In this document: positions 5,730-32,000 of the stretch, piece after piece
How the letters are laid out: each line of letters opens with the position of its first letter
How positions within the stretch are numbered: position 1 is the first letter of the stretch
Assembly: GCF_936981045.1 (NCBI RefSeq)
Contig: NZ_OW441264.1
Location: 240,001-272,000, forward strand
Length of the DNA stretch: 32,000 nt
Reading direction: 5' to 3'
Source: Candidatus Saccharimonadota bacterium
Lineage (GTDB): Bacteria > Bacteroidota > Bacteroidia > Cytophagales > Amoebophilaceae
Position numbers and translations under genes: made by a program
The notes under the pieces: generated by a model
Databases searched by the model: none
What the model saw: the letters and a program-made list of their open reading frames with translations, nothing else
Told to the model about the DNA's origin: nothing

Positions 5730-5745
5730 TTATATCTTAGTATTA

Positions 5746-5985
5746 ACGTGAGTGCGGGATTTATTTGACTGATTTACAACAATTTAATATCAATTATTTA
5801 GTTAATATTTGCACCTATTTAACAAGTTTTTATATCTAATTTTATAAATATAATATATATAATAAACTGATTATAAGAATTATTTGTTATTCAACTACCT
5901 ATTTAACTGTCTATAAAACAAATTTTATAAATTTTTATTAATATTGATTATCAAATGAAAAAATAATCTAATCCCGAACTCACGT
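5746..5985. mobile_element. MITE-like non-autonomous element (~240 bp, very AT-rich, non-coding) with IS982-type terminal inverted repeats
   Basis: The left end is ACGTGAGTGCGGGAT (5746-5760). The right end is ATCCCGAACTCACGT (5971-5985), whose reverse complement ACGTGAGTTCGGGAT matches 14 of 15. The core GAGT(T/G)CGGGAT equals the TIR core of the IS at 1397-2398. The interior has no ORF. No clear target-site duplication. Confidence 0.55.
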
Positions 5986-6077
5986 GAAAAAAGTACTTTA
6001 TGAACACATAACTAAAGGGATAAACCTGAACGAAGAATACAAGAAAATCAGCTTTATTTGTTTGAAACTATCAAGCA

Positions 6078-6742: not shown

Positions 6743-8002
6743 CTATTCTGTAAAATTTTCTAACACTATATAACTTAGCATAAGGGATATGCCAGATAAC
6801 AATAGTATAAGGTTGCAATTCAGAATCATTAACTTCCCTATAAATAGCCCAGCAATAAAGAAACCCATGGAAGCTATTTGCCCGCTACTACCGATTATCT
6901 TGCCTTGACTTTCTTTGCTTACGCTACCAGCAAATAAGTTGGTAAATCCTAATGTAGAAAATGGAGTAAATATATAAAATAATATTGCTATTATCCATGT
7001 AATATACAGGTGATCTGTTACAGATAAACATGATATGATTTGTCTGGAAATTGAACCAAATATTAATAATAGGGCAGTGACGAGTAGTGATAACTTGATT
7101 TGAGTTTTATAAGTAATGTACTTAACCATTAGTTTTTGTAATGAATACATGCTCATTGCCATAGTTATGAACATGACTATAAAGAATATACCAATCTTAT
7201 TAGGTGTATAACTATGGTTATATGCTAGATACAGTGATAGTGATTCTACAAATAGCCCAAAACCAAGCATAAATAATAAATAGCTAAAAGCCAACTTGAT
7301 TAAGTATGGGGTACCAAATATATATGTTAATGAAGTTGCTATCGACCTTAGAGCATGTAATAGATTAAAGCAAGATTTATTGGGTGTCATCTCCATATGG
7401 TACTTTATGTTAATTTTCCTAAAGCTATTCCATAGTAGCAGGAGGTTAGCTATGCTAAGTATACAAACGATAACAAATGGAATAATTAATGGATTGGCCA
7501 TATTTATTTGACTGATGCATATAGATAATCCGGGACCTAATATAAAACCCAACATAGATGCAAGCATGGGTAACTTAAAATTATTCATTCTGTCCTGTTC
7601 ATTATCAGATATATAACTAATTAAGGCATTACCTACTGCATAAGTACCAGATAAAAATCCACTTAAGCATATGCTCAGTAGAAATAACCATATATTATGG
7701 GTTGCTATTGCAGCTATACTTAATAGGCTATTCATTACTAATCCTATCAATCCATATAGGATAATTTTACTTTTCTCATACCTATCTGATAGCGCTCCTA
7801 ATATTGGCATGCCAACCATACTTGATAAAGGAAATAAAGCAAGCGTTAGGCTATACAATGTCTCATATGCGCAGCATATATTGTCAATTTTTAGTCCAAG
7901 CTTACGATTCATAAATAACTCTGGAAGTATAGGAAACAGTAAACCACTGTTTATTCCATCGATAAGTAACATCAAACAAATGCTGTATAAGAGAGGTTTC
8001 AT
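6743..8002 (-). CDS. Major facilitator superfamily transporter (DHA1/TetA-like, ~12 TM), the likely exporter of the NRPS product
   Basis: 419 aa track ORF, hydrophobic throughout. The MFS motif A region is GMPILGALSDRYEKSKIIL (compare GxLSDRxGRK). It lies last in the minus-strand MbtH-PPTase-MFS gene string. Confidence 0.8.
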   Translation of the reverse strand: MKPLLYSICLMLLIDGINSGLLFPILPELFMNRKLGLKIDNICCAYETLYSLTLALFPLSSMVGMPILGALSDRYEKSKIILYGLIGLVMNSLLSIAAIATHNIWLFLLSICLSGFLSGTYAVGNALISYISDNEQDRMNNFKLPMLASMLGFILGPGLSICISQINMANPLIIPFVIVCILSIANLLLLWNSFRKINIKYHMEMTPNKSCFNLLHALRSIATSLTYIFGTPYLIKLAFSYLLFMLGFGLFVESLSLYLAYNHSYTPNKIGIFFIVMFITMAMSMYSLQKLMVKYITYKTQIKLSLLVTALLLIFGSISRQIISCLSVTDHLYITWIIAILFYIFTPFSTLGFTNLFAGSVSKESQGKIIGSSGQIASMGFFIAGLFIGKLMILNCNLILLLSGISLMLSYIVLENFTE

Positions 8003-8114: not shown

Positions 8115-8891
8115 TTACAAGATTTTAATTTTATTGAAAATATAGTGGTTATGCATTTCTACATAAGCGATTTGATTTATTTTATGTTCTATAGCTAAAG
8201 CAGCTGAATAATCACCCTTTACCCTTAATGGAAAACAATACCAACTTTTCGGATACCGATTTTGTTTACTAGCAAGCGCAATAGTATTTGCCCCCATGGT
8301 CTCAATGGTGTTAATCGGATAGGATAACCCCTGCCCATTTGCTTTAATCAATGATTCTTTTTTAGTCCATATATCGTAAAAAAAACTAACTTTTGCATCA
8401 CCATTCAGGCAAGTAAAAAAGCGATATTCTGTGGGAGTAAATACCAGATGAGCCAGCTCTTGCACTTCTAGATTCTTATCATGTAGTTCAATATCAATAC
8501 CCACTCTACTATCTAAAGCAATCGCATAACCAACTAGGTCATGCGAATGGGACATATTAAAGGTAATATTAGACTCCTTCAAGAAAGGTTTACCATAGGC
8601 TCCGTAGGAAAATATAATATCTTTTGGATGCTGCTTAGTGTAATAGCCTAATATATACCTTAAAATTCCATGTGAGATAATGTACTGCCTCCTTAAATGG
8701 TCCGTATAATATTTGCTGGCTTGAACTTGTTCTTCAGCTGCTAAACATTGAAGGAATGGGTTTATATTTAATTTGCACTCAGCTAGATTGACAATATAAA
8801 TAAACACTTTATTAGGGTTTTGATTGAATACCAACTGGTCTAAAAGTTTTTGTTCAAAAATACCAGCACATTCCATTAAACCCTTTAGCAT
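8115..8891 (-). CDS. Sfp-type 4'-phosphopantetheinyl transferase
   Basis: 258 aa track ORF with the canonical motifs: RRQYIISHGILRYILG, YGKPFL, FNMSHSHDLVGYAI, VGIDIE and WTKKESLIKANGQGL (W/TxKE(A/S)xxK). Confidence 0.88.
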   Translation of the reverse strand: MLKGLMECAGIFEQKLLDQLVFNQNPNKVFIYIVNLAECKLNINPFLQCLAAEEQVQASKYYTDHLRRQYIISHGILRYILGYYTKQHPKDIIFSYGAYGKPFLKESNITFNMSHSHDLVGYAIALDSRVGIDIELHDKNLEVQELAHLVFTPTEYRFFTCLNGDAKVSFFYDIWTKKESLIKANGQGLSYPINTIETMGANTIALASKQNRYPKSWYCFPLRVKGDYSAALAIEHKINQIAYVEMHNHYIFNKIKIL

Positions 8892-8988
8892 ATATTGCCC
8901 TAGCTTATGATTATTTCACTTTATGTCCTATAGCCCATATGCAAACATACACCAAGTATCAAGCAAAGCTGCTTTGCTTAGATTTTCC

Positions 8989-9201
8989 CTAATTAGAGGC
9001 AGTTAATTTGTCCATTTTTTCCCTAAGGCTTTTTGGTTTCATATCTGTCCATACCTGATTGATGTATTGCAAGCACTCCTCTTTACTACCTTTGGGCCTA
9101 ACCTGCTTCCAACCATGTGGAATGGGTTTCCATGCAAACCAAAGTGAATACTGTTCTTCCTCATTTATCAAGCATATATATGTTTCATGTTTGTCTGACA
9201 T
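8989..9201 (-). CDS. MbtH-like protein (adenylation-domain chaperone)
   Basis: 70 aa track ORF. NEEEQYSLWF-AWKPI-PHGW ... WTDMKPKSL matches the MbtH signature NxExQxSxWP-x5-PxGW...WTDxRP, with Pro replaced by Phe and Arg by Lys. Confidence 0.85.
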   Translation of the reverse strand: MSDKHETYICLINEEEQYSLWFAWKPIPHGWKQVRPKGSKEECLQYINQVWTDMKPKSLREKMDKLTASN

Positions 9202-9798
9202 AGTATATAATAATTTACTGGTTACATCTTGTTTGCGACAATGGACTTAGATTGGAGGATTGGTCATCCCCACAGTTGTGTTCTAAGCCCCTAAGTATAG
9301 AGTTAAAATAAACATTAAAATAGATACAGTACAAGACCCTAATTTAGCATAATCTTATTCTTGTCATAAATTATACTCTTAATCACATAAAAATAATTTT
9401 TTAAAAGAAGAATTTTTATATAAAATATCAGAGCATATTGCATAATACAATTTTTTTCCTTTTATATCGTACATAAAGCCTTGTTGAAATTAAAGGTCTA
9501 AGAGGAGCCTTAAAAAGCAGGAGCAAGGTTAGGAAATGAATGCATGGTAACCAATCAAAGATAAATATAGTCTTATATCGGTGAAATCATCATATCATTT
9601 TATTTTGGAGGCATCCTTTCCTAACTATATGGTACCTTCTAAAATATTTTTTTAATGCTTTTCCCTAACTTCCTAACGGAAAGACGGATTTGTTAAGAGT
9701 ACAGCAAGAGGCTCACTAACAGTGTATACATAAAAAATAGGTTTAAGTAAATTGAATATGCTGATTAGTTGGTTACATAACTAAAATGATAAAAAGTC
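9202..9798. promoter_or_regulatory. Divergent AT-rich intergenic region between the accessory operon (minus) and the NRPS gene (plus). It presumably holds both promoters and contains repeated CCTAAC motifs.
   Basis: 597 bp without a credible ORF, flanked by divergently oriented start codons (9201 and 9799). CCTAAC occurs at 9620-9625, 9664-9669 and 9672-9677, and inverted GTTAGG at 9528-9533. No promoter boxes could be assigned with confidence. Confidence 0.4.
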
Positions 9799-11100
9799 AT
9801 GGGACGATTATTATTATCACCTTTTCATAAAATATTTTTTTATGAATGGAAATTAGATCCATATAGAAGTGATTACAATATAGTATGGGATCAGGAGTTA
9901 ACAGGTAAATTAAATATATCTAGATTAAATGATGCTATTCAACGCTTTATTGCTGATCATGTAATATTAAATAGCCATATCGAAGAGATAGATGGAGAAC
10001 TATATTGGATAAAGAACCCTAAAATATATGCATTAACCCATTTTAAAAATGGATTAACCAAACAAGATGTATTAGCATATATACAAAAGCCTTGTGAGTT
10101 AACAAATGGCCCATTGTATAGATTTGGATTGGCAAAAACACAAAGCAATCAGTACAGGTTCATTATTGTTTTGCACCATATAGTTGTAGATGGATTATCA
10201 TTTGATCATTTTGTAAATGAGTTATCCAATTACTATAATAGCAAGTATTATACATCCGCTGTTTCTACTCAAGAGCAAGTATTAAAGATTTCAGCTTTAT
10301 CTGATACATTGGTAAAAAATTACCAACGCAACCATGCAACTAGCAAGTTATTTTGGAGAGAAAAATTGTTGGACAGCGAACCTATAGATTTAAGTTTTCT
10401 ACGCTTTAGATGCAACCATCCTATACAAGATGTATCTGGATGGTCAATCTCCGAGCTTACTGGTATAGGAGAGCTAAGGTTCAGCTTTGATCAAACAGTA
10501 TTATTGAAACTAGATAGGTTGAAAGAACAATGTAACATAACCCCTTATCTATTTAGTCAGAGTATATTTGCCCTTTTACTGTACAAATACACTGGCCAAA
10601 ATAATTTTGGCATAAGTTATCTAGTGCCCATTGAACAGGGAAGAGATTTCTTATATGGGGTCGGTTTTAATACCAATATCATTCTTTATAACTTTAGTCA
10701 AGTAAATAATATTTTAGATCTAATTGATCAATCTAAAGCATTTATCCAATCATTAAAATATGGGGTTGTTGACCATAGCTATCTACCTATATTTGATATT
10801 ATATCAGTATCCGACAAATCTCTATTAGATGTCCAGTTTGTTCAGACGAACTTAAAAGATAAGCCTTTTGCATTTAAAGGTATAACAGCACAGGTTCATA
10901 GTAATACTAATATTGATCTATCTACAAAATTATTATTTGAACAAGAATTTAGGGATAATCAAATTTGTTATCGAGTAAGGTATAGATTAGATAACATTAA
11001 CAGAGATTTATTAGATGACTTTATAGACAGCTATAAGCGGCTGTTTTTAGCCATCTTGGATGAATTGGTTGCTGTAAAGGATATAGCCAATTTAAAACCT
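9799..11100 (+). other. NRPS N-terminal condensation domain. It is a starter C domain by position, suggesting possible lipo-initiation.
   Basis: MGRLLLSPFHKIFFYEW... (the LSPxQ-like C1 region), with HHIVVDGLS at 10174-10200. It is followed directly by the first A domain, and no A/T precedes it. Sequence divergence from the four internal C domains is obvious. Confidence 0.7.
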
Positions 11101-14100
11101 ATTATATCTTACTTGCTACTTTCTAAGGAACAATATGATCAAATTGTTTACAATTGGAATGCTACAGATAAAGTATATCCAGCTCATAAGACTATCCATC
11201 AGTTATTTGAAGAGCAAGTAGCAAGAACCCCAGATCATATAGCAGTAGTATATGAAGATGTAAGGCTTACTTATAAAGAGCTAAATGCAAGAGCCAATCA
11301 GTTAGCCAACTATTTAATAGAACATTATCAGCTTCAACCTGATGCGTTAATAGCCTTATGTTTGGATCGCAGTGCGCATATGTTGATAGTGATTTTAGCT
11401 GTATTAAAAGCTGGAGGAGCCTATGTACCCATTGACCCAAGCTATCCTGATGAAAGGATTCAGTATATATTAGAGGATACGGGTACTAAGTTAGTATTGA
11501 CTAATGAGGTATACCAGAAAAGGTTAGAAGCTATTAATCAGTATAATTTGACCAATACAGCTGGAATAGCCAATCAGGAAGATATAGCAGTAAGTCAACT
11601 ATGCGACATCTTAGCTATAGATGGTAAGCCTTTAGGGGAACAATTATTGTTACAATCAATAGCTAATCCAAATACAGAAACAATAAGTACGCATCTAGCC
11701 TATGTAATTTATACTTCAGGAACTACTGGTAAGCCTAAGGGGGTATTACAACTGCATGGTAATATTATGAGGTTATTTACAGCAACAGATAATTGGTATC
11801 AGTTTAGTGATAAAGAGGTTTGGACATTATTCCATGCCTATATATTTACCTTTAGTGTGTGGGAGATATGCGGAGCATTACTTTACGGAGGCAAGTTGGT
11901 TATACCCTCCTATGAGGAAACAAGAGAGCTCAACTTGTTTTACGAGTTATGCAATAAGGAGCAAGTAACCATATTAAATCAAACGCCTAGTGCTTTTTAT
12001 CAATTTACAGAGATAGCTATTCGTAAGGAAAAACTAACCCACTTAAGGTATGTTATATTTGGCGGTGAAGCTTTAAAGCCCTTCCAATTACAAGATTGGT
12101 TTGCTTGCTATGGCTATGATCAGCCTAAGTTAATCAATATGTATGGTAGTACAGAAACTGCTGCGCATGTCACTTATAAACCAATAACACAACAGGATCT
12201 AGTAGCGTACTCATATATAGGTAAGATCATACCTGATTTAAAATCATATGTATTAGATACCACCTTAACTCCCTTACCAATAGGCACCATAGGGGAATTA
12301 TATATAAGCGGAGCAGGTCTGGCCCGAGGTTACTTAAATAGAGCCGATCTTACCGCCGAGCGATTTATGGCCAATCCCTTCCAAACTGAAGACGAAAGAA
12401 GATCAGGAAAAAACGCAAGGTTATATAAAACAGGAGATTTAGTTAGATGGTTACCTGATGGTAATTTGGAATATATAGGAAGGAATGATTTTCAAGTTAA
12501 GATTAGAGGTTATCGTGTTGAACTAGGAGAGATTGAAGCTGCTTTATCTAGTTATCCAGCTATTAAACAAAGTGTGGTACTAGCTAGAGAGCATAAGGAC
12601 AAGGCAGAGGGTGGAGTTGGTCATAAATATCTAGTGGGTTATTATGTAGCAGAGACTAGATTAGATGAAGGAGCAATACTTAATTATCTGCAATCTAAAT
12701 TACCAGACTATATGGTACCTGCTCTATTAGTACACTTAGATCAGCTACCCCTTACCATTAATGGTAAATTGGATAGAAAAGCTTTACCAGAGCCTGAATT
12801 TACCAATCAAGATAGTTATGTAGCGCCAAGGAATGAGCTAGAAAGAAAGGTATGCCAGATATGGGCAGAGGTATTGGGATTAGCTGCAGATAAGGTAGGC
12901 ATAGAGGATGATTTCTTTAGATTAAGGGGGGATAGTATTGTAAGTATTCAACTGGTCAGTAGATTAAGGCAAAAACTGGGATTACATATTCGTGTTAAAG
13001 ATATTTTTACTTATAAAACCATTGAAAAACTTTATGATCATGTCTTAAGTAAAAAGGTAGACAGTGATGCAGAGCTAAAAACTGAGCAAGGTATGCTAAC
13101 GGGTGAACTACCCTTACTACCGGTACAACAATGGTTCTTTGCACATAACTTTACTGCTGCTCATCATTGGAATCAAGCATTTCTAATCAAAACACCTAAT
13201 TTAGATTTAAATCAACTAGAAAAAAGTATAGCGCAACTGTTCCAGCACCATGATGGCTTTAGGTTAAGGTATAAGAAAGTAGCAGAGCAGGAGCATTATG
13301 GGCAATATTATGATGCAAATGCAGTAGTAGAACCACTAAAGGTGTTAGATGTTAGGACATTGTCAGTTAAAGAAGGTAGTAAATCATTTGAGGCTAAGTT
13401 ACGGGAAGTATTAACCGATTGGCAAAGTGAATTTGATTTGGAAAATGGACCAGTCTATAGCATAGGCTATATCCATGGCTATCAGGATGGTAGTAGCCGC
13501 ATCCATTTTTCCCTACACCATTTAATAGTAGATGCGGTAAGTTGGCGTATATTAGCTGAAGACTTAAGAGCTATTTACTACAGTAAAGATCTAGGTAGTA
13601 AAGGCAGTAGTAACCGCCAATGGGTGCATGCAGTAGAGGCATATGCCGTTAGCCACTCATCTGAAAAAGACTACTGGATCCATGTTTTATCCGATTACAA
13701 CAGCAGTCCATTGGATGTCTTGATGGTCAGTGAAACTACCTGCCACTACAGCAGCCTACAGCTAAGCAAGCAACAAACGGTCCGGTTGTTACAGGAAAGT
13801 AACCAAACCTATCATACCCAAATCAATGATTTATTACTGACAGCGCTTGGTTATAGCTTAGCTGAAATTACTCGCCATAAGGTTAACCATATTGTGTTAG
13901 AAGGTCATGGTCGAGAAGCTATTGATGGTAGTATTGATGTAACTAGAACATTGGGTTGGTTTACTACCATCTATCCAGTTCGCTTAGAGATTGGTGCATC
14001 ATTAGCAGATAGTATCAAACATACCAAGGAAAATCTAAGAAAGATCCCTCATAAGGGCATAGGTTATGGCACTTTATTGGGTTATAAAAAGGATCTCCCC

Positions 14101-17100
14101 AGGATAAGTTTTAATTACCTAAGGCAATTTGATAAAAAAGATGGAATAGATCAATGGCCTATTGTTGGTGAAGCGACTGGTGTAACCATAGATAGTGCCA
14201 ATCAAGATCCTTATATCATTAATATCAATGGCTTAGTAATCAATGGTCAACTGCAGTTTGATATATCTAGTAAGCTAGATACAGCCACTACCCAAAAACT
14301 GGCTCATACATTTAAGCAAAAATTGGAAGAGGTCATTGATCATACCATAGAGCAAACCAGAAGTTATTTAACCGTAAGTGATATAGATTACATCATCAGT
14401 CAAGAATGCTTGGATAGCTTACAAAGCGATAAAGAGGTAGCAGGAGTATATTTGGCCAATAGCCTACAGCAAGGCTTTATCTACCATGCCTTAAGCCAAG
14501 GAGATATCGATGATGCCTATCGCGTACAAGTGATTTGGGAATATCATACTCCATTAGATGTTGATCATTTAAAAGAAGCTTGGCTATTGGCTCAAGCTAA
14601 GTTTGGTAGTTTACGATTAAGGTTAGACTGGCAAGAGGAGTTGATTCAAATAATAGATAAGATAGGCCATTTAAATTGGCACTATATCGATGTAAGTCAA
14701 ACACAAGATCTGGTTGCCCAATCTACTAAGATTAAGCAAATTCAAGAACAAGATCGACAGGAACCCTATAACCTAGCCTTAGGTAATCTGTTTAGAGTAT
14801 ATTTAATTAAACAAAAGAAAGATTTATATACCTGCATTTTTAGTAATCATCATGCCATACTAGATGGTTGGAGCAACCAAATACTATTTAAATATGTGCA
14901 TGATACCTACTTAAAAGTACAGGCGCAAGCAGTCATACCATTAAAGGTAGATGTTAGTTATCCAGCTGCCCAGCAATACATACAGGCGCATCAAACAACT
15001 AATAAGGATTACTGGGATGCATATATAGCACAAATAGAAGAACGAACTGACTTAAGTGGATTATTATCCAGTAGTGGACAACAGTTACGCATCAACGAGC
15101 ATAGACATATCCGTAATCCTCAGGATCAAATAGTAAGCATTACAGGTAACCTGTATGATGGATTAAAACAACTAAGCCAAGTAGCAGGTGTAACCTTAAA
15201 TGCATTATTACAATATGTATGGCATAAAGTATTAAGTATTTATGGCAACAGTCTTCAAACGGTAGTAGGTACTACTGTGTCAGGTAGAAATCTTCCTATA
15301 GATGATATAGAACACTCAGTAGGGTTATATATCAATACCCTTCCTTTGGTAGTAGTCCATCAGAGTGATATAAGTGTTATAGAGGCTATCAGGAAGATCC
15401 AAAGCGATATCAATGAGATCAATAGCAGAAGCGATATAAGCTTGGCTAAGCTACAGAAAGAGGGTCAAAGGTTATTTGATAGCTTATTTGTATATGAAAA
15501 TTATCCTGATTTAATTGGTAAGGAAGCGCATGAAGATATAAAAATAAGCTTTAAAGAATTGGTAGAGAAACTAGACTATCCATTAGCAGTAACAGCTTAT
15601 GAAGCCAATCATCAGTTAACTTTTGCGCTTAAATATGCAGGGGAATTATTTAGTAAAGATACTATAGCAGATTTATTATTGATCGTTCAAGGCTTACTTG
15701 AACAAATAGCTGGTGATCCTGATCAGCAGGTATCTAATCTGGATTATCTTACCCCAGCACAGTATAATCAAATTATAGCTACCTGGAATGCTACAGATAA
15801 AGCATATCCAGCTCATAAGACCATTCATCAATTGTTTGAAGAACAGGTAGAGAAGACTCCAGGTCATATAGCAGTAGTATATAAGGAGGTAAAGTTAACC
15901 TACAGGCAACTCGATGAAAGCGCTAACCGGTTAGCTAACTATTTAATAAAACATTATCAGATTCAACCTGACGTGTTAATAGCCTTATTTTTAGATCGCA
16001 GTGAGCATATGTTGATAGCGATTTTAGCTGTATTAAAAGCTGGAGGAGCCTATGTACCCATTGACCCAAGTTATCCTGATAAGAGAATTCAGTATATACT
16101 AGAAGATACTGATACTAAATTAGTATTGACTAATCAGGTCCATCAGCAAAGGTTAGAAGCTATTAGTCAATATAATTTGACCAATACAGCTGGAATAGCC
16201 AATCAGGAAGATGTAGCAGTAAGTCAACTATGCGACATCTTAGCTATAGATGGTAAGCCTTTAGGGGAACAATTATTGTTACAATCAATAGCTAATCCAA
16301 ATACAGAAACAATAAGTACTCATTTAGCCTATGTAATCTATACTTCAGGAACTACTGGTAAGCCTAAGGGGGTAATGGTAGAGCATAAAGGAATAGTAAA
16401 TTATATTTTGAATTTTCAGAATTATATAGAGTTATCTTATAGTGAGAAAGTTGACCTGTCTTCAAGTCTTAGTTTTGATTTTACTGTTACAACTACATTA
16501 TGTAGTTTGTGTTTAGGGTTCCAAGTTGCTGTTTATGGTGGTCAATTAGAAGATTTGGAATCATACAGAAATTATCTAGTCAATAATTCAATATCTATGG
16601 TGAAGCTATCACCAAGTTATGGTGAGTTATTAATTGATTTTTTAAATGGTACACGAATTAATAAAGTTATATTTGGCGGAGAGAAATTAGGTGTCACTAT
16701 TCTAAGCAAGCTACCATATCTTAATAACAAGGTAAAAATATATGATGAATATGGTCCAACTGAAACAACAGTTGGTGTTTATTGCATTGAGATACATTCT
16801 AATGGTAATGTAGCTAAAAGAAATATATATGATAATTGTAAGTTATATGTGTTAGATACCACTTTAGCTCCCCTACCTATAGGAGCTATAGGAGAATTGT
16901 ATATAGGCGGAGCAGGTCTAGCCCGAGGTTACTTAAACAGATCTGACCTTACCGCTGAGCGGTTTATAGCTAATCCATTCCAAACTGGAGAAGAGAAAAG
17001 ATTAGGAAAGAATGCAAGATTATATAAAACGGGAGATTTAGTACGTTGGTTACCAGATGGTAATTTGGAGTGTATAGGAAGGAATGATTTCCAAGTTAAA

Positions 17101-20100
17101 ATTAGAGGTTATCGTATTGAATTAGGAGAAGTTGAAACTGCTTTATCCAGTTATCCAGCTATTAAACAAAGTGTGGTACTAGCTAGAGAGCATAAGGACA
17201 AGGCAGAGGGTGGAGCTGGTCATAAATATCTAGTGGGTTATTATGTATCAGAGACTAGATTAGATGAAGGAGCAATACTTAATTATCTGCAATCTAAATT
17301 ACCAGACTATATGGTACCTGCTCTATTGGTACACCTAGATCAGCTACCTCTTACCATTAATGGTAAATTGGATAGAAAAGCTTTACCAGAGCCTGAATTT
17401 ACCAATCAAGGTGGTTATGTAGCGCCAAGGAATGGGCTAGAAAAAAAGGTATGCCAGATATGGGCAGAGGTATTAGGATTGGATGAAGATAAAGTAGGCA
17501 TAGAGGATGATTTCTTTAGATTAGGGGGAGATAGTATTGTAAGTATTCAGTTGGTCAGTAGATTAAGGCAAAAGCTAGGATTACATATTGGTGTTAAAGA
17601 TATTTTTACTTATAAAACCATTGAAAAACTTTATGATCATGTCTTGAGTAAAAAGGTAGATAGTGATGCACAGTTAAAAACTGAGCAAGGTATACTAACG
17701 GGTGAACTACCCTTACTACCGGTACAACAATGGTTCTTTGCACATAACTTTACCGCTGCTCATCATTGGAATCAAGCATTTCTAATCAAAACACTTAATT
17801 TAGATTTAAATCAACTAGAAAAAGGTATAGCGCAATTGGTCCAGCACCATGATGGCTTTAGGTTAAGGTATAAGAAAGTAGCAGAGCAGGAGCATTATGG
17901 GCAATATTATGATGCAAATGCAGCAGTAGAACCACTAAAGGTGTTAGATGTTAGGACGTTACCAGTTAAAGAAGGTAGTAAATCATTTGAGGCTAAGTTA
18001 CAGGAAGTATTAGCCGATTGGCAAAGTGGATTTGATTTGGAAAATGGACCAGTCTATAACATAGGCTATATCCATGGGTATCAAGATGGTAGTAGCCGCA
18101 TCCATTTTTCCCTACACCATTTAATAGTAGATGCGGTAAGTTGGCGTATATTGACTGAAGATCTAAAGGCTATTTACCATGGTCATAAGTTAGGCTTAAA
18201 AGGCAGTAGTTACCGCCAATGGGTGCATGCAGTAGAGGAATATGCAGCTAGTCATGCATCTGAAAAAGACTACTGGATCCATGTTTTATCCGATTATAAC
18301 AGCAGTCCGTTGAATGGTTTGATGGTCAGTGAAACTACCTGCCACTACAGTAGTTTACAACTAAGCAAGCAACAAACGGTTCGGTTGTTACAGAAAAGTA
18401 ACCAAGCCTACCATACCCAAATCAATGATCTATTGTTGACAGCCCTTGGTTATAGTTTAGCTGAAATCACTGGCCATAGGGTTAACCATATTGTGTTAGA
18501 AGGTCATGGTCGAGAAGCGATTGATGGTAGTATTGATGTAACTAGAACATTAGGTTGGTTCACTACCATCTATCCGGTTCGCTTAGAGATCAGTGCATCA
18601 TTAGCAGATAGTATCAAGCATATCAAGGGCAATCTAAGAAAGATCCCCCATAAGGGCATAGGTTACGGCACTTTATTGGGTTATAAAAAGGATCTACCCA
18701 AGATAAGTTTTAATTACCTAGGACAATTTGATAAGAAAGATGGAACATTAGATGGATGGCCTATTGTTAGTGAAGCGGCTGGTATAACCGTAGATGGTGC
18801 CAATCAAGATCCTTGTATTATTAATATCAATGGCCTAGTAATCAATGGTCAACTTCAGTTTGATATATCCAGTAAGCTAGATATAGCCACTACCCAAAAA
18901 CTGGCTGACGCGTTTAAGCAAAAACTGGAAGAGGTCATTGATCATACCGTAGGGCAAACCAGAAGTCATTTAACCACAAGTGATATAGATTACATTATCA
19001 GTCAAGAGCGGTTAGATCTATTACAGGAATCCAGAGAAATAGAAGGAGTATATTTGGCCAATAGCTTACAACAAGGCTTTATCTACCATGCTTTAAGCCA
19101 AGGAGACATCGATGATGCCTATCGCATACAAGTGATTTGGGAATATCATACTTCATTAGATGTTGATCACTTAAAAGAAGCTTGGACATTGGCTCAAGCT
19201 AAGTTTGGTAGTTTACGATTAAGACTAGACTGGCAAGGGGAGTTGATTCAAATAATAGATAGGGTAGGTTACTTAAATTGGCATTATATCGATATAAGTC
19301 AAATGCAAGATCTGGCTGCCCAATCTACTAAGATTAAGCAAATTCAAGAACAAGATCGACAGGAACCCTATAACCTAGCCTTAGGTAATCTGTTTAGAGT
19401 ATATTTAATTAAACAAAAGAAAGATTTATATACCTGCATTTTTAGTAATCACCATGCCATACTAGATGGTTGGAGCAACCAAATACTATTTAAATATGTG
19501 CATGATACCTACTTAAAAGTACAGGCGCAAGCAGTCATACCATTAAAGGTAGATGCTAGTTATCCAGCCGCACAGCAATATATACAGACTCATCAGGCAG
19601 CCAATAAGGATTACTGGGATGGATATATAGCACAAATAGAAGAACGAACTGACTTAAGTGGGTTATTATCCAGTAGTGGCCAACAGTTACGCATCAACGA
19701 ACATAGGCATATCCGTAATCCTCAGGATCAAATAGTAAGCATTATAGGTAATCTGTATGATGGATTAAAGCAATTAAGCCAGGTAGCAGGTGTAACTTTA
19801 AATGCGTTGCTACAATATGTATGGCATAAAGTATTAAGTATTTATGGAAACAGTCTTCAAACGGTAGTAGGTACTACTGTGTCAGGTAGAAATCTTCCTA
19901 TAGATGATATAGAACACTCGGTAGGGTTATATATCAATACCCTTCCTTTGGTAGTAACCCATCAAGGTGATATAAGCGTTATAGAGGCTATCAGGAAGAT
20001 CCAAAGCGATATCAATGAGATCAATAGCAGAAGCGATATAAGCTTGGCTAAGCTACAGAAAGAGGGTCAAAGGTTATTTGATAGCTTATTTGTATATGAA

Positions 20101-23100
20101 AATTATCCTGATTTAATTGGTAAGGAAGCGCATGAAGATATAAAAATAAGCTTTAAAGAATCGGTAGAGAAACTGGACTATCCATTAGCGGTAATAGCTT
20201 ATGAAGCCAATCATCAGTTAACTTTTGTGCTTAAATATGCAGGAGAATTATTTAGCAAAGATACTATAGCAGATTTATTATTGATCGTTCAAGGCTTACT
20301 TGAACAAATAGCTAGTGATCCTGATCAGCAGGTATCTAATCTGGATTATCTTACCCCAGCACAGTATAATCAAATTATAGCTACCTGGAATGATACAGAT
20401 AAAGCATATCCAGCTCATAAGACCATTCATCAATTGTTTGAAGAACAGGTAGAGAAGACTCCAGGTCATATAGCAGTAGTATATGAAGAGGTAAAGCTTA
20501 CTTATAAAGAGCTAAATGAGAAATCTAACCAGTTAGCCAACTATTTAATAAAACATTATCAGATTCAACCTGATGCGTTAATAGCCTTGTGTTTGGACCG
20601 TAGTGAGCATATGTTGATAGCGATTCTAGCTGTGTTAAAAGCTGGAGGAGCCTATGTACCCATTGACCCAAGCTATCCTGATGAGCGAGTTCAGTATATA
20701 CTAGAAGATACTGATACTAAATTAGTATTGACTAATCAGGTCCATCAGCAAAGGTTAGAAGCTATTAGTCAATATAATTTGACCAATACAGCTGGAATAG
20801 CCAATCAGGAAGATGTAGCAGTAAGTCAACTATGCGACATCTTAGCTATAGATGGTAAGCCTTTAGGGGAACAATTATTGTTACAATCAATAGCTAATCC
20901 AAATACAGAAACAATAAGTACTCATTTAGCCTATGTAATCTATACTTCAGGAACTACTGGTAAGCCTAAGGGGGTATTACAACTGCATGGTAATATTATG
21001 AGGTTATTTACAGCAACAGATAATTGGTATCAGTTTAGTGATAAAGAGGTTTGGACATTATTCCATGCCTATATATTTGACTTTAGTGTGTGGGAGATAT
21101 GGGGAGCATTGCTTTACGGAGGCAAGTTGGTTATACCCTCCTATGAGGAAACAAGAGAGCTCAACTTGTTTTACGAGTTATGCAATAAGGAGCAAGTAAC
21201 CATATTAAACCAAACGCCTGGTGCTTTTTATCAATTTATAGAGATAGCTATTCATAAGGAAAAACTAACCCACTTAAGGTATGTTATATTTGGTGGTGAA
21301 GTCTTAAAGCCCTTCCAATTACAAGATTGGTTTGCTTGCTATGGCTATGATCAGCCTAAGTTAATCAATATGTATGGTATTACAGAAACTGCTGTGCATG
21401 TCACCCATAAACCAATAACACAACAGGATTTGGTAGCGTACTCATATATAGGTAAGATCATACCTGATTTAAAATCATATGTATTAGATACCACCTTAAC
21501 TCCCCTACCTATAGGAGCTATAGGAGAATTGTATATAGGCGGAGCAGGTCTAGCCCGAGGTTACTTAAACAGATCTGACCTTACCGCTGAGCGGTTTATA
21601 GCTAATCCATTCCAAACTGGAGAAGAGAAAAGATTAGGAAAGAATGCAAGATTATATAAAACGGGAGATTTAGTACGTTGGTTACCAGATGGTAATTTGG
21701 AGTGTATAGGAAGGAATGATTTCCAAGTTAAAATTAGAGGTTATCGTATTGAATTAGGAGAAGTTGAAACTGCTTTATCCAGTTATCCAGCTATTAAACA
21801 AAGTGTGGTACTAGCTAGAGAGCATAAGGACAAGGCAGAGGGTGGAGCTGGTCATAAATATCTAGTGGGTTATTATGTATCAGAGACTAGATTAGATGAA
21901 GGAGCAATACTTAATTATCTGCAATCTAAATTACCAGACTATATGGTACCTGCTCTATTGGTACACCTAGATCAGCTACCTCTTACCATTAATGGTAAAT
22001 TGGATAGAAAAGCTTTACCAGAGCCTGAATTTACCAATCAAGGTGGTTATGTAGCGCCAAGGAATGGGCTAGAAAAAAAGGTATGCCAGATATGGGCAGA
22101 GGTATTAGGATTGGATGAAGATAAAGTAGGCATAGAGGATGATTTCTTTAGATTAGGGGGAGATAGTATTGTAAGTATTCAGTTGGTCAGTAGATTAAGG
22201 CAAAAGCTAGGATTACATATTGGTGTTAAAGATATTTTTACTTATAAAACCATTGAAAAACTTTATGATCATGTCTTGAGTAAAAAGGTAGATAGTGATG
22301 CACAGTTAAAAACTGAGCAAGGTATACTAACGGGTGAACTACCCTTACTACCGGTACAACAATGGTTCTTTGCACATAACTTTACCGCTGCTCATCATTG
22401 GAATCAAGCATTTCTAATCAAAACACTTAATTTAGATTTAAATCAACTAGAAAAAGGTATAGCGCAATTGGTCCAGCACCATGATGGCTTTAGGTTAAGG
22501 TATAAGAAAGTAGCAGAGCAGGAGCATTATGGGCAATATTATGATGCAAATGCAGCAGTAGAACCACTAAAGGTGTTAGATGTTAGGACGTTACCAGTTA
22601 AAGAAGGTAGTAAATCATTTGAGGCTAAGTTACAGGAAGTATTAGCCGATTGGCAAAGTGGATTTGATTTGGAAAATGGACCAGTCTATAACATAGGCTA
22701 TATCCATGGGTATCAAGATGGTAGTAGCCGCATCCATTTTTCCCTACACCATTTAATAGTAGATGCGGTAAGTTGGCGTATATTGACTGAAGATCTAAAG
22801 GCTATTTACCATGGTCATAAGTTAGGCTTAAAAGGCAGTAGTTACCGCCAATGGGTGCATGCAGTAGAGGAATATGCAGCTAGTCATGCATCTGAAAAAG
22901 ACTACTGGATCCATGTTTTATCCGATTATAACAGCAGTCCGTTGAATGGTTTGATGGTCAGTGAAACTACCTGCCACTACAGTAGTCTACAACTAAGCAA
23001 GCAACAAACGGTTCGGTTGTTACAGAAAAGTAACCAAGCCTACCATACCCAAATCAATGATCTATTGTTGACAGCCCTTGGTTATAGTTTAGCTGAAATC

Positions 23101-26100
23101 ACTGGCCATAGGGTTAACCATATTGTGTTAGAAGGTCATGGTCGAGAAGCGATTGATGGTAGTATTGATGTAACTAGAACATTAGGTTGGTTCACTACCA
23201 TCTATCCGGTTCGCTTAGAGATCAGTGCATCATTAGCAGATAGTATCAAGCATATCAAGGGCAATCTAAGAAAGATCCCCCATAAGGGCATAGGTTACGG
23301 CACTTTATTGGGTTATAAAAAGGATCTACCCAAGATAAGTTTTAATTACCTAGGACAATTTGATAAGAAAGATGGAACATTAGATGGATGGCCTATTGTT
23401 AGTGAAGCGGCTGGTATAACCGTAGATGGTGCCAATCAAGATCCTTGTATTATTAATATCAATGGCCTAGTAATCAATGGTCAACTTCAGTTTGATATAT
23501 CCAGTAAGCTAGATATAGCCACTACCCAAAAACTGGCTGACGCGTTTAAGCAAAAACTGGAAGAGGTCATTGATCATACCGTAGGGCAAACCAGAAGTCA
23601 TTTAACCACAAGTGATATAGATTACATTATCAGTCAAGAGCGGTTAGATCTATTACAGGAATCCAGAGAAATAGAAGGAGTATATTTGGCCAATAGCTTA
23701 CAACAAGGCTTTATCTACCATGCTTTAAGCCAAGGAGACATCGATGATGCCTATCGCATACAAGTGATTTGGGAATATCATACTTCATTAGATGTTGATC
23801 ACTTAAAAGAAGCTTGGACATTGGCTCAAGCTAAGTTTGGTAGTTTACGATTAAGACTAGACTGGCAAGGGGAGTTGATTCAAATAATAGATAGGGTAGG
23901 TTACTTAAATTGGCATTATATCGATATAAGTCAAATGCAAGATCTGGCTGCCCAATCTACTAAGATTAAGCAAATTCAAGAACAAGATCGACAGGAACCC
24001 TATAACCTAGCCTTAGGTAATCTGTTTAGAGTATATTTAATTAAACAAAAGAAAGATTTATATACCTGCATTTTTAGTAATCACCATGCCATACTAGATG
24101 GTTGGAGCAACCAAATACTATTGAAATATGTGCATGATACTTACTTAAAACTACAAGCGCAAGCAGTTATACCATTAAAAGTAGATGCTAGTTATCCAGC
24201 CGCACAGCAATATATACAGACTCATCAGGCAGCCAATAAGGATTACTGGGATGGATATATAGCACAAATAGAAGAACGAACTGACTTAAGTGGATTATTA
24301 TCTAGTAGTAGCAAACAGTTACATATCAATGAGCATAGACACATTCGTAATCCCCAGGATCAAGTAGTAAGCATTATAGGTAATCTGTATGATGGATTAA
24401 AGCAATTAAGCCAGGTAGCAGGTGTAACTTTAAATGCGTTGCTACAATATGTATGGCATAAAGTATTAAGTATTTATGGAAACAGTCTTCAAACGGTAGT
24501 AGGTACTACTGTGTCAGGTAGAAATCTTCCTATAGATGATATAGAACACTCGGTAGGGTTATATATCAATACCCTTCCTTTGGTAGTAACCCATCAAGGT
24601 GATATAAGCGTTATAGAGGCTATCAGGAAGATCCAAAGCGATATCAATGAGATCAATAGCAGAAGCGATATAAGCTTGGCTAAGCTACAGAAAGAGGGTC
24701 AAAGGTTATTTGATAGCTTATTTGTATATGAAAATTATCCTGATTTAATTGGTAAGGAAGCGCATGAAGATATAAAAATAAGCTTTAAAGAATCGGTAGA
24801 GAAACTGGACTATCCATTAGCGGTAATAGCTTATGAAGCCAATCATCAGTTAACTTTTGCGCTTAAATATGCAGGAGAATTATTTAGCAAAGATGCTATA
24901 GCAGATTTATTATTGATCGTTCAAAGCTTACTTGAACAAATAGCTGGTGATCCTGATCAGCAGGTATCTAATCTGGATTATCTTACCCCAGCACAGTATA
25001 ATCAAATTATAGCTACCTGGAATGCTACAGATAAAGCATATCCAGCTCATAAGACCATTCATCAATTGTTTGAAGAACAGGTAGAGAAGACTCCAGGTCG
25101 TATAGCAGTAGTATATGAAGAGGTAAAGCTTACTTATAAAGAGCTAAATGAGAAATCTAACCAGTTAGCCAACTATTTAATAAAACATTATCAGATTCAA
25201 CCTGATGCGTTAATAGCCTTGTGTTTGGACCGTAGTGAGCATATGTTGATAGCGATTCTAGCTGTGTTAAAAGCTGGAGGAGCCTATGTACCCATTGACC
25301 CAAGCTATCCTGATGAGCGAGTTCAGTATATACTAGAAGATACTGATACTAAATTAGTATTGACTAATCAGGTCCATCAGCAAAGGTTAGAAGCTATTAG
25401 TCAATATAATTTGACCAATACAGTTGGAATAGCCAATCAGGAAGGTGTGGCAATAAGTCAACTATGCGACATCTTAGCTATAGATGGTAAGCCTTTAGGG
25501 GAACAATTATTATTACAATCAATAGCTAATCCAAATACAGAAACAATAAGTACTCATTTAGCCTATGTAATCTATACTTCAGGAACTACTGGTAGACCTA
25601 AAGGAGTCATGATAGAACATAAAGGGGTCGTGAATTTAAGATATGATTTAACAGGTAGGTATCAGCTTGGTCATACAGATAATAATGAAGCTATTTTACA
25701 ATTTGCTGATTATGTGTTTGACGCTTCAGTAGAGCAAATGGTATTGCCTCTATTAGGTGGTCACCTGTTGGTACTTATTCCAAACCAGTTATGGTTAGAT
25801 AAACAACAGTTTTATAATTATCTAATTACCCATAAAGTTACTCATATGCATGCTACGCCTGCCTTTTTAGAGCAATGTAATTTTAGCCAAATTGCAAGTT
25901 TGAAGAGATTGGTATGTGGAGGCGACTTACTCAGTCAAGATCGCTACAACAAAATAAAGCTAGCGGTAGGTGATGATCTCACCATAATAAATGAATATGG
26001 ACCTACGGAAGCATCTATAACTTCTACAGTTAGTGTTATCCAACATAATACTCTAATCACGATAGGAGTGCCTATTTCCAATATGAGGTGCTATATATTA

Positions 26101-29100
26101 GATGATAGCCTAACCCCCTTACCCATAGGGGCGATAGGAGAATTATACATAGGCGGAGCAGGTCTATCCCGAGGTTACTTAAACAGATCTGACCTTACCG
26201 CTGAGCGGTTTATAGCTAACCCATTCCAAACTGGAGAAGAGAAAAGATTAGGAAAGAATGCAAGATTATATAAAACGGGAGATTTAGTACGTTGGTTACC
26301 AGATGGTAATTTGGAGTGTATAGGAAGGAATGATTTCCAAGTTAAAATTAGAGGTTATCGTATTGAATTAGGAGAAGTTGAAACTGCTTTATCCAGTTAT
26401 CCAGCTATTAAACAAAGTGTGGTACTAGCTAGAGAGCATAAGGACAAGGCAGAGGGTGGAGCTGGTCATAAATATCTAGTGGGTTATTATGTATCAGAGA
26501 CTAGATTAGATGAAGGAGCAATACTTAATTATCTGCAATCTAAATTACCAGACTATATGGTACCTGCTCTATTGGTACACCTAGATCAGCTACCTCTTAC
26601 CATTAATGGTAAATTGGATAGAAAAGCTTTACCAGAGCCTGAATTTACCAATCAAGGTGGTTATGTAGCGCCAAGGAATGAGCTAGAAAAAAAGGTATGC
26701 CAGATATGGGCAGAGGTATTAGGATTGGATGAAGATAAAGTAGGCATAGAGGATGATTTCTTTAGATTAGGGGGAGATAGTATTGTAAGTATTCAGTTGG
26801 TCAGTAGATTAAGGCAAAAGCTAGGATTACATATTGGTGTTAAAGATATTTTTACTTATAAAACCATTGAAAAACTTTATGATCATGTCTTGAGTAAAAA
26901 GGTAGATAGTGATGCACAGTTAAAAACTGAGCAAGGTATACTAACGGGTGAACTACCCTTACTACCGGTACAACAATGGTTCTTTGCACATAACTTTACC
27001 GCTGCTCATCATTGGAATCAAGCATTTCTAATCAAAACACTTAATTTAGATTTAAATCAACTAGAAAAAGGTATAGCGCAATTGGTCCAGCACCATGATG
27101 GCTTTAGGTTAAGGTATAAGAAAGTAGCAGAGCAGGAGCATTATGGGCAATATTATGATGCAAATGCAGCAGTAGAACCACTAAAGGTGTTAGATGTTAG
27201 GACGTTACCAGTTAAAGAAGGTAGTAAATCATTTGAGGCTAAGTTACAGGAAGTATTAGCCGATTGGCAAAGTGGATTTGATTTGGAAAATGGACCAGTC
27301 TATAACATAGGCTATATCCATGGGTATCAAGATGGTAGTAGCCGCATCCATTTTTCCCTACACCATTTAATAGTAGATGCGGTAAGTTGGCGTATATTGA
27401 CTGAAGATCTAAAGGCTATTTACCATGGTCATAAGTTAGGCTTAAAAGGCAGTAGTTACCGCCAATGGGTGCATGCAGTAGAGGAATATGCAGCTAGTCA
27501 TGCATCTGAAAAAGACTACTGGATCCATGTTTTATCCGATTATAACAGCAGTCCGTTGAATGGTTTGATGGTCAGTGAAACTACCTGCCACTACAGTAGT
27601 CTACAACTAAGCAAGCAACAAACGGTTCGGTTGTTACAGAAAAGTAACCAAGCCTACCATACCCAAATCAATGATCTATTGTTGACAGCCCTTGGTTATA
27701 GTTTAGCTGAAATCACTGGCCATAGGGTTAACCATATTGTGTTAGAAGGTCATGGTCGAGAAGCGATTGATGGTAGTATTGATGTAACTAGAACATTAGG
27801 TTGGTTCACTACCATCTATCCGGTTCGCTTAGAGATCAGTGCATCATTAGCAGATAGTATCAAGCATATCAAGGGCAATCTAAGAAAGATCCCCCATAAG
27901 GGCATAGGTTACGGCACTTTATTGGGTTATAAAAAGGATCTACCCAAGATAAGTTTTAATTACCTAGGACAATTTGATAAGAAAGATGGAACATTAGATG
28001 GATGGCCTATTGTTAGTGAAGCGGCTGGTATAACCGTAGATGGTGCCAATCAAGATCCTTGTATTATTAATATCAATGGCCTAGTAATCAATGGTCAACT
28101 TCAGTTTGATATATCCAGTAAGCTAGATATAGCCACTACCCAAAAACTGGCTGACGCGTTTAAGCAAAAACTGGAAGAGGTCATTGATCATACCGTAGGG
28201 CAAACCAGAAGTCATTTAACCACAAGTGATATAGATTACATTATCAGTCAAGAGCGGTTAGATCTATTACAGGAATCCAGAGAAATAGAAGGAGTATATT
28301 TGGCCAATAGCTTACAACAAGGCTTTATCTACCATGCTTTAAGCCAAGGAGACATCGATGATGCCTATCGCATACAAGTGATTTGGGAATATCATACTTC
28401 ATTAGATGTTGATCACTTAAAAGAAGCTTGGACATTGGCTCAAGCTAAGTTTGGTAGTTTACGATTAAGACTAGACTGGCAAGGGGAGTTGATTCAAATA
28501 ATAGATAGGGTAGGTTACTTAAATTGGCATTATATCGATATAAGTCAAATGCAAGATCTGGCTGCCCAATCTACTAAGATTAAGCAAATTCAAGAACAAG
28601 ATCGACAGGAACCCTATAACCTAGCCTTAGGTAATCTGTTTAGAGTATATTTAATTAAACAAAAGAAAGATTTATATACCTGCATTTTTAGTAATCACCA
28701 TGCCATACTAGATGGTTGGAGCAACCAAATACTATTGAAATATGTGCATGATACTTACTTAAAACTACAAGCGCAAGCAGTTATACCATTAAAAGTAGAT
28801 GCTAGTTATCCAGCCGCACAGCAATATATACAGACTCATCAGGCAGCCAATAAGGATTACTGGGATGGATATATAGCACAAATAGAAGAACGAACTGACT
28901 TAAGTGGATTATTATCTAGTAGTAGCAAACAGTTACATATCAATGAGCATAGACACATTCGTAATCCCCAGGATCAAGTAGTAAGCATTATAGGTAATCT
29001 GTATGATGGATTAAAGCAATTAAGCCAGGTAGCAGGTGTAACTTTAAATGCGTTGCTACAATATGTATGGCATAAAGTATTAAGTATTTATGGAAACAGT

Positions 29101-32000: not shown

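Follow-up and report, generated by a model that had tools for sequence, protein, structure and literature searches.

Introduction

The closest description of the system reported here is that of the kahalalide nonribosomal peptide synthetases (NRPSs) of the intracellular symbiont Candidatus Endobryopsis kahalalidifaciens, which display a "unit-and-linker" organisation (Li et al., 2024, PMC11428043). In these enzymes a "specificity unit" of the adenylation (A) domain extends from the end of motif A3 to an extended motif A6. A "chirality unit" extends from the T1 motif of the carrier (T) domain through the (E)-C region, i.e. epimerisation (E) and condensation (C) domains, to a CA motif about 28 amino acids (aa) before motif A1, and the CA-A3 and A6-T1 linkers are conserved and represent recombination hot spots (PMC11428043). 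Here we analyse a stretch of 32,000 bp (contig NZ_OW441264.1, positions 240,001 to 272,000, assembly GCF_936981045.1; "the window", to which all coordinates refer), which contains the 5′ part of the NRPS gene of the Cardinium endosymbiont of the dwarf spider Oedothorax gibbosus. All four boundary types of the kahalalide enzymes are also present in this gene, the modules of which are near-identical in tandem except for a cassette between A3 and A6. The data make it likely that recurrent intragenic gene conversion, blocked at these divergent cassettes, has shaped a gene under purifying selection, although this mechanism is deduced from sequence.

The likeness extends to the kahalalide CA motif ELLETFNxTE(VA)YP, which resembles IATWNATDKAYP in the Cardinium gene. 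On the other hand, kahalalide recombination takes place between 20 separate pathways of one genome, whereas the Cardinium case concerns tandem modules of one gene. The Cardinium array also reaches 100% DNA identity over 2.9 kb, and the modules in the window are all of the D (E-containing) subtype, unlike the kahalalide description.

Natural NRPS recombination in general targets the core of the A domain (A-core) and leaves intact both the C-A linker and Asub-T interface (Baunach et al., 2021, PMC8097286). The exchange units of these cyanobacterial and other A-core swaps (Baunach et al.) lie within the A-core and correspond to the Cardinium cassette; however, the swaps were inferred across strains or clusters and replace the cassette, whereas the Cardinium gene displays the converse, a backbone homogenised around resident cassettes in one gene. 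In assembly-line polyketide synthases (PKSs), paralogous modules are closer to each other than to orthologues through intragenic gene conversion (Nivina et al., 2021, PMC8256042). The same study defines GRINS (genetic repeats with intense nucleotide skews) as repeats of >500 bp with >80% identity, in which the mean |GC| skew and the mean |TA| skew each exceed 0.15. The Cardinium gene shares the likeness of paralogous modules, but is an NRPS, belongs to the Bacteroidota and falls short of the GRINS skew values. For the mycolactone PKS genes mlsA1 and mlsB of Mycobacterium ulcerans, passages in two reports state that module rearrangements alter the product (PMC2730631, PMC2569948). These are likewise giant assembly-line genes with homologous modules, assembly hazard and recombinational instability, but they encode a plasmid-borne PKS system, for which strain variation has been demonstrated. 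The degree of identity among the mycolactone modules, said to be documented in the 2004 work of Stinear and co-workers, is reportedly high. Seen next to these systems, the Cardinium array neatly illustrates a pattern already known and is not a new type of system.

The gene itself is already published, and its internal repeats are what is added here. Halter et al. (2023, PMC9997750) described a "large NRPS cluster" of Cardinium sp. cOegibbosus-W744x776 with seven modules of A, peptidyl carrier protein (PCP), C and E domains and a thioesterase (TE) in the last, and predicted the product "TNTXXLP" (PMC9997750, Fig. S2). By keyword search, the main text and the legend of Fig. S2 of that paper give the order of domains and the predicted peptide only, and mention neither the near-identity of the modules nor the mosaic of cassette and backbone, nor the Asp235Thr exchange in the first A domain, nor the MbtH-PPTase fragment in the co-resident Wolbachia (see below).

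Repeat structure of the NRPS gene

Self-comparison of the window by blastn displays four full blocks of about 4.13 kb (12246-16374, 16845-20976, 21477-25607 and 26092-30221) and the start of a partial fifth block at 30706, and these blocks are separated by about 480-530 bp without DNA homology. Each period consists of an A3-A6 specificity cassette of about 500 bp plus a backbone of about 4.1 kb, which extends from A6 through the C-terminal subdomain of the A domain, T, E and C to the next A3 (cassettes of modules M1-M5 and backbone units U1-U5 in Table 1). A sequence-only reading of the window had described near-perfect tandem modules of about 4.6 kb in a coding array. The coding tandem array stands, but both its NRPS identity and the unrepeated A3-A6 specificity cassette had been missed.

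Base-by-base comparison reproduces the tracts of that reading. A single mismatch (18355 T / 22987 C) is found in 2,621 bp between 16870-19490 and 21502-24122, three mismatches (21553, 21606, 22067) in 3,409 bp between 21535-24943 and 26149-29557, and none between 22068-24943 and 26682-29557, which at 2,876 bp is the maximal exact run. The reading had named a substantially larger number of mismatches in a computed alignment as grounds for its rejection; the computed alignment displays none beyond those claimed for its tracts. Its module periods of 4602, 4632 and 4614 bp, said to be divisible by 3, are recovered between anchors in the A3 motif, where the complete series is 4629, 4602, 4632 and 4614 bp; anchors in motif A7 give 4599, 4632, 4614 and 4614 bp, and all of these values are multiples of 3. 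Correct in every figure, the earlier description was nonetheless incomplete, as there are further copies and identity resumes past 19490. Block 2 differs from block 3 by 38 mismatches in 4,131 bp (99.08% identity), the identity extending to 20975, whereas block 4 is 96.3% identical to block 2, and the blocks 12246-16374 and 16845-20976 are 93.1% identical (blastn). Modules 1 and 5, 18.5 kb apart, have in common a tract of 539 bp with 1 mismatch (12346-12884 vs 30805-31343). Modules differ in length only in their cassettes, plus one codon in M1. Chance is no concern for exact repeats of kilobase length, and a scan of the 9.8 kb upstream of the gene yielded short, weak repeats only.

For comparison by segment, the modules were cut at four conserved points, namely WNATDKAYP in the C-A linker, the end of A3, the start of the extended A6, and the end of the carrier motif FFRLGGDSI. 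The A-core cassettes (501-531 bp) are about 47% identical in general, with the exception of two sister pairs, M1 and M3 (96.8%) and M4 and M5 (93.0%). The A6-T1 linker (666 bp) is 100% identical in M2 and M3 and 98.6% in M4, while M1 and M5 are about 90-91% identical to these. The T1-E-C-CA unit (2,847 bp) is 98.6-99.5% identical among M2, M3 and M4, with M1 at about 93% and M5 at about 70%. In the CA-A3 linker (588 bp), M3 and M4 are 98.1% identical, followed by M2 (93-95%), M1 (about 90%) and M5 (82%). As a side observation, GC skew within the window peaks in the A6-T1 linker (16873-17538 and its copies), at +0.30 compared to +0.13 for the whole gene.

Probable gene conversion and its alternatives

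The ends of the homologous tracts lie at motifs. At the A3 end, give or take a few bases (e.g. at 16371 and 20973), DNA homology between modules breaks off, and it resumes some 28 bp ahead of the extended A6 with its motif LPIG...GELYI (e.g. at 16845, with the motif boundary at 16873), so that the cassette has the bounds of the kahalalide specificity unit. The bounds of the chirality unit are found as well: the tract common to M1 and M5 ends 29 bp before the carrier T1 motif, with M5 at about 70% immediately after it, and the perfect tract of M3 and M4 stops 75 bp short of the CA motif (WNATDKAYP, at 25018), with a distinct allele (82%) in the N-terminal linker of A5. A further tract end coincides with the His motif of a C domain. 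Here an island of 240 bp (19491-19732 vs 24123-24364 and 28737-28978) contains 6 amino-acid changes with identity on both flanks. C2 and C3 (U1 with U2) carry one allele of the island, C4 and C5, both upstream of similar "X" cassettes, the other. It could be a retained difference at the acceptor site or a short conversion tract.

Identity along the units is mosaic. Among 422 variable sites in units 1-4, 16 of the 23 that display the grouping 12|34 are located in 19346-19845, 15 of the 18 with the grouping 14|23 in 20346-20845, and 91 of pattern 4|123 in 20346-20976 (U2 coordinates). In a GENECONV-like test the longest concordant tracts exceed those of all 2,000 permutations of site order in five of the six pairs of units (p<=0.0005).

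Silent sites provide the second line of evidence. Synonymous divergence (dS) is 0 over the tract of 2,876 bp, 0.012-0.024 over the whole M2-M4 units and 0.21-0.28 in comparison with U1, which is the older copy; thus, the tracts are far closer to each other than are neighbouring homologous segments. The sister cassettes display dS values of 0.068 (M1/M3) and 0.178 (M4/M5). Because silent divergence is lower in the backbones than in the sister cassettes, the cassettes appear to have occupied their places long before the backbones were homogenised. The ratio of nonsynonymous to synonymous divergence (dN/dS) is 0.15-0.35 in every segment and 0.20 for the comparisons with U1, and these values and the intact frame show the gene to be under purifying selection. 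The sequence-only reading had left recent duplication and gene conversion (concerted evolution) side by side; this proposal is supported, and the mosaic identity together with the dS contrast sharpens it towards gene conversion.

The tandem layout and the in-frame periods would also be obtained by one or two recent whole-module tandem duplications followed by swaps of A-core cassettes, without ongoing homogenisation. Both the M3 and the M4 cassette do have a sister within the array (M1 and M5, respectively), and among natural recombination events in NRPSs the A-core swap is the most common (PMC8097286). However, such a history predicts that cassettes resemble their donors at least as closely as the backbones resemble each other, which is opposite to the dS values given above (cassettes 0.068 and 0.178, backbones 0-0.024). 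It is also at odds with three groupings that contradict one another along the unit, with a divergent island between identical flanks, and with a private tract common to the non-adjacent modules M1 and M5, and several independent exchanges would be needed anyway. We consider this history unlikely. The four units are equally far (71.8-72.0% nucleotide identity) from the homologous unit in a Rickettsiaceae metagenome-assembled genome (MAG, see below), as would be the case for paralogues that cluster within the genome, although this outgroup lies too far away to tell conversion from duplication after divergence.

An artefact of assembly or polishing, by which the number of modules was inflated or collapsed or differences between copies were erased by mis-assigned noisy reads, appears very improbable to us. 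The genome was assembled with Unicycler 0.4.6 from PacBio reads only, selected beforehand by mapping against short-read MAGs (PMC9997750), and the residual differences are mostly located near the unique cassettes, where anchored reads would protect them. The hazard, also pointed out in the sequence-only reading, is thus real in principle, but it is mitigated by the unique cassette of about 500 bp in each 4.6 kb, which anchors reads longer than about 5 kb, and by the intact frame of 22 kb, which is free of homopolymer frameshifts. In addition, the divergent island at 19491-19732 survives 1.2-2.6 kb from the nearest cassette, the differences bear a biological signature (dN/dS of about 0.2, mostly third positions), and the order of seven modules ending in a TE (published legend) is that of a complete line. 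Finally, that the repeats are GRINS can practically be dismissed: in spite of their length (>500 bp), their identity (>80%) and the GC skew of +0.30 in the A6-T1 linker, mean |TA| skew is 0.12 at a mean |GC| skew of 0.196 (in windows of 100 bp, which may differ from those of the GRINS authors), similar to C1 and the neighbouring genes for threonyl-tRNA synthetase (ThrRS) and LpxD, and GRINS are reported to be rare in Bacteroidetes (PMC8256042).

Some points weigh against recurrent gene conversion in a functional assembly line, or limit how far it may be taken. The comparison is based on a single genome, conversion is deduced from patterns of identity, and recent duplications are not fully separable from it. 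The copy number, as well as the freedom from consensus smoothing, depends on the assembly. Modules 6-7 and the TE lie beyond the window, and the product is a prediction. Furthermore, module 1 may load a substrate other than an amino acid, or may be impaired or atypical (see the codes below).

Proposed mechanism and product

Based on this dataset, we hypothesize that homologous recombination of paralogous modules starts within the conserved linkers, and that gene conversion of the RecA type, or unequal exchange, keeps the M2-M4 backbones and smaller tracts of M1 and M5 near-identical. Tract boundaries would be set at A3, the extended A6, the carrier motif GGDSI and the C-A linker motif. Heteroduplex would extend until it meets a cassette of about 47% identity, where it would be stopped by loss of homology and probably by selection on substrate order. 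As an outcome, the "chassis" would evolve in concert, while the order of substrates (Thr-like, Asn, Thr, X, X and so forth) would be preserved.

Unequal exchange within the identical tracts of 2.6-2.9 kb would lead to the loss or gain of exactly one module, because every period is in frame, and gain or loss of modules in this way is likely to occur at some rate. RecA is reported to be conserved across all sequenced Cardinium genomes (PMC12342168). Since RecA is conserved and all periods are in frame, recombinational instability of the locus, as proposed in the sequence-only reading, is plausible. A more far-reaching idea is that the array is a live in-frame recombination engine, such that Cardinium populations within or between spiders vary in the number or order of modules and produce a family of peptides rich in D-residues, with parts of the cluster moving between co-resident symbionts, as the identical fragment in Wolbachia (see below) may indicate; we regard this as speculative and rather doubtful.

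The predicted product is a heptapeptide whose residues 1-6 are in the D form, in accordance with six E domains (published legend). Judging by the position of the N-terminal C domain, it may be N-acylated.

Predicted substrate specificity

For the five A domains, specificity (Stachelhaus) codes were extracted by alignment to GrsA-PheA, which was validated in that it returned its known code DAWTIAAICK at positions 235-517. Readings are limited to Thr and Asn, and A4 and A5 are left unassigned. All nine variable positions of the code lie inside the non-homologous stretch, which extends from the A3 end to about 10 residues before A6. The codes (Thr-like, Asn, Thr, X, X; Table 1) agree with the published T-N-T-X-X for the first five modules.

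The first module displays two deviations. At position 235 of A1 (11848-11850) a Thr is found, while the sister cassette in module 3 has an Asp. An Asp at this position is near-universal and binds the alpha-amino group of the substrate. In addition, the T1 motif of this module (12925-12927) reads RGDSI, where the other carriers read GGDSI.

Implications

The gene may serve as a teaching-grade case of NRPS evolution, in which the A3-A6 cassette acts as a unit of its own and homogenisation affects the remainder of the module. Its breakpoints are located at the same motifs that now serve as fusion sites for NRPS engineering. The symbiont is an obligate intracellular one with a genome of about 1.1 Mb, of which about 3% is devoted to this one enzyme, and because of this expenditure the peptide presumably matters in a host that is co-infected by up to five symbionts. 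When Cardinium strains are resequenced or compared, the number of modules should be treated as unverified. Short-read assemblies will break at the identity between modules, which can also lead phylogenies at the module level astray. The general interest is modest; the case is of use for NRPS evolution and engineering and for the assembly of Cardinium genomes.

Domain content and feature coordinates

The open frame comprises at least 7,402 codons (36.5% GC at the DNA level). Its core motifs map to the order Cstarter-A1-T1-E1-C2-A2-T2-E2-C3-A3-T3-E3-C4-A4-T4-E4-C5-A5-T5-(E5...), i.e. C, A and T (PCP) domains recur in assembly-line order as in a modular (type I) NRPS. Pfam detects Condensation ten times, AMP-binding six times, PP-binding five times, and also AMP-binding_C; the six AMP-binding matches represent five A domains, as the stretch cut by a split at residue 3736 was counted twice. 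The catalytic motifs (HHxxxD of C and E, A3, A7, A8, the Lys of A10, and the carrier Ser) are intact in every module, with the exceptions of the Thr at position 235 in A1 and of RGDSI in T1. Judged from its sequence, the gene is probably functional.

The domains following the carriers carry the motif EGHGRE of E domains. Those after T1 and T2 score 92.1 and 93.0 bits with TIGR01720 (cut-off 74.2), which identifies them as E and not C, and the piece 3′ of T5 aligns to the E-domain positions of model PRK05691. The best solved-structure matches of the T-E-C segment are GrsA PCP-E, TycA E and PvdL T-E-C. The N-terminal C domain (C1, 9799-11154) has no DNA homologue elsewhere in the window by self-blastn, and its matches to solved C domains are weak (best E=1.7e-11). 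Its position suggests that it is a probable starter C domain.

Table 1. Coordinates of the NRPS gene, its repeat units and neighbouring features in the window
Feature	Position	Strand	Remarks
NRPS gene, 5′ 22.2 kb	9799..32000, past window end	+	stop-free frame 9793-31998; Pfam, core motifs
N-terminal C domain, unrepeated	9799..11154	+	Pfam Condensation; intact HHIVVDG motif at 10174
A-core cassette M1 (A3 end to extended A6)	11743..12273	+	TFWNIGMAHK; Thr-like, Asp235 -> Thr
A-core cassette M2	16372..16872	+	DFTKIGEVGK; Asn-like; 46-48% nucleotide identity to all others
A-core cassette M3	20974..21504	+	DFWNIGMVHK; canonical Thr code
A-core cassette M4	25606..26118	+	DAEHVGEITK; acidic pocket; unassigned
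A-core cassette M5	30220..30732	+	DAEDVGEITK; unassigned
Unit U1 (A6, T1, E1, C2, N-terminal third of A2 up to A3)	12274..16371	+	about 93% to U2-U4
Unit U2	16873..20973	+	99.08% to U3, 96.3% to U4
Unit U3	21505..25605	+	
Unit U4	26119..30219	+	last ~600 bp (N-terminal part of A5) a distinct allele, 82% to others
Partial unit U5	30733..32000	+	A6-T1 linker module-1-like; about 70% from carrier serine motif on (diverged E domain)
Perfect repeat, copy 1 (2,876 bp)	22068..24943	+	end of A6-T1 linker, T3 serine motif, complete E3, almost all of C4
Perfect repeat, copy 2 (2,876 bp)	26682..29557	+	T4-E4-C5
U2 tract with a single difference from U3 21500-24122	16868..19490	+	
M1 A6-T1 linker tract	12346..12884	+	1 base from M5 tract, 9% from M2-M4 allele
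Divergence island in C3	19491..19732	+	just 3′ of HHAILDG motif; 19 differences between U2 and U3/U4
MbtH-like NRPS accessory gene	8989..9201	-	Pfam PF03621, E=9e-18
Sfp-type 4′-phosphopantetheinyl transferase (PPTase) gene	8115..8891	-	Pfam ACPS and AASDHPPT_N
MFS transporter gene	6743..8002	-	Pfam MFS_1, E=4e-22
Insertion sequence (IS) transposase DDE_Tnp_1_3	1503-2384		split into open reading frames of 82 aa and 197 aa

Neighbouring genes and related clusters

The genes for an MbtH-like accessory protein, a PPTase and an MFS transporter lie upstream of the NRPS gene on the opposite strand, and the MFS protein is a probable exporter of the NRPS product. Past the MFS gene follow ThrRS, LpxD and an IS transposase. 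The latter appears to be split into two open reading frames and may be a pseudogene with a frameshift, or else be subject to programmed frameshifting. Transposable elements are reported to make up about 30% of the Cardinium genome (PMC9997750). [quoted passage not shown] Scans of the window against Rfam and for tRNAs returned no matches.

Among 5.8 billion proteins no homologue of the module with more than 66% aa identity was found, and the closest match to the module in JGI metagenomes is a single one of 65% identity. Neither search yielded a close orthologue from Cardinium. The contigs examined for the top module matches carry different clusters. A homologous, decaying and partly pseudogenised cluster is present in a MAG of a Rickettsiaceae bacterium, an alphaproteobacterial symbiont (GCA_028803295.1, JARBCD010000098.1, 4861-13500). 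It comprises a PPTase, a starter C domain split into two open reading frames, and an A-T-E-C-A segment fused to OTU/SecA-like sequence. This cluster is equally related to each Cardinium unit (72% at the nucleotide and 63% at the aa level; starter C 68% nucleotide identity), and DNA homology between the two symbionts vanishes across the A-core as well. These data suggest a cluster family that is common to, and moves between, unrelated intracellular symbionts across phyla.

DNA shared with the co-resident Wolbachia

A fragment of 1,027 bp (8577-9603) matches, at 100% identity, a chromosomal stretch of the Wolbachia endosymbiont of O. gibbosus (OW370567.2, around 1,618.5-1,619.6 kb). It takes in the MbtH gene in full, 315 bp from the start of the PPTase gene and about 400 bp of the intergenic region between MbtH and NRPS, and in Wolbachia it is flanked by fragments of an acyl-CoA dehydrogenase gene and by a carboxyl-transferase gene that is truncated. 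NCBI labels the MbtH protein "MULTISPECIES [Pseudomonadati]". Of the proteins looked up by exact sequence (ThrRS, LpxD, MFS, PPTase and MbtH), MbtH was the single one with a match, in a Wolbachia chromosome. Either a very recent transfer between phyla, from one co-resident symbiont to another, or an assembly chimera may account for this fragment. Two further stretches of about 230-250 bp (1396-1623 and 5743-5989) have counterparts of 98% identity in adjacent parts of the Wolbachia chromosome, which adjoin a group II intron reverse-transcriptase gene, and are probably shared fragments of mobile elements or of miniature inverted-repeat transposable elements (MITEs).

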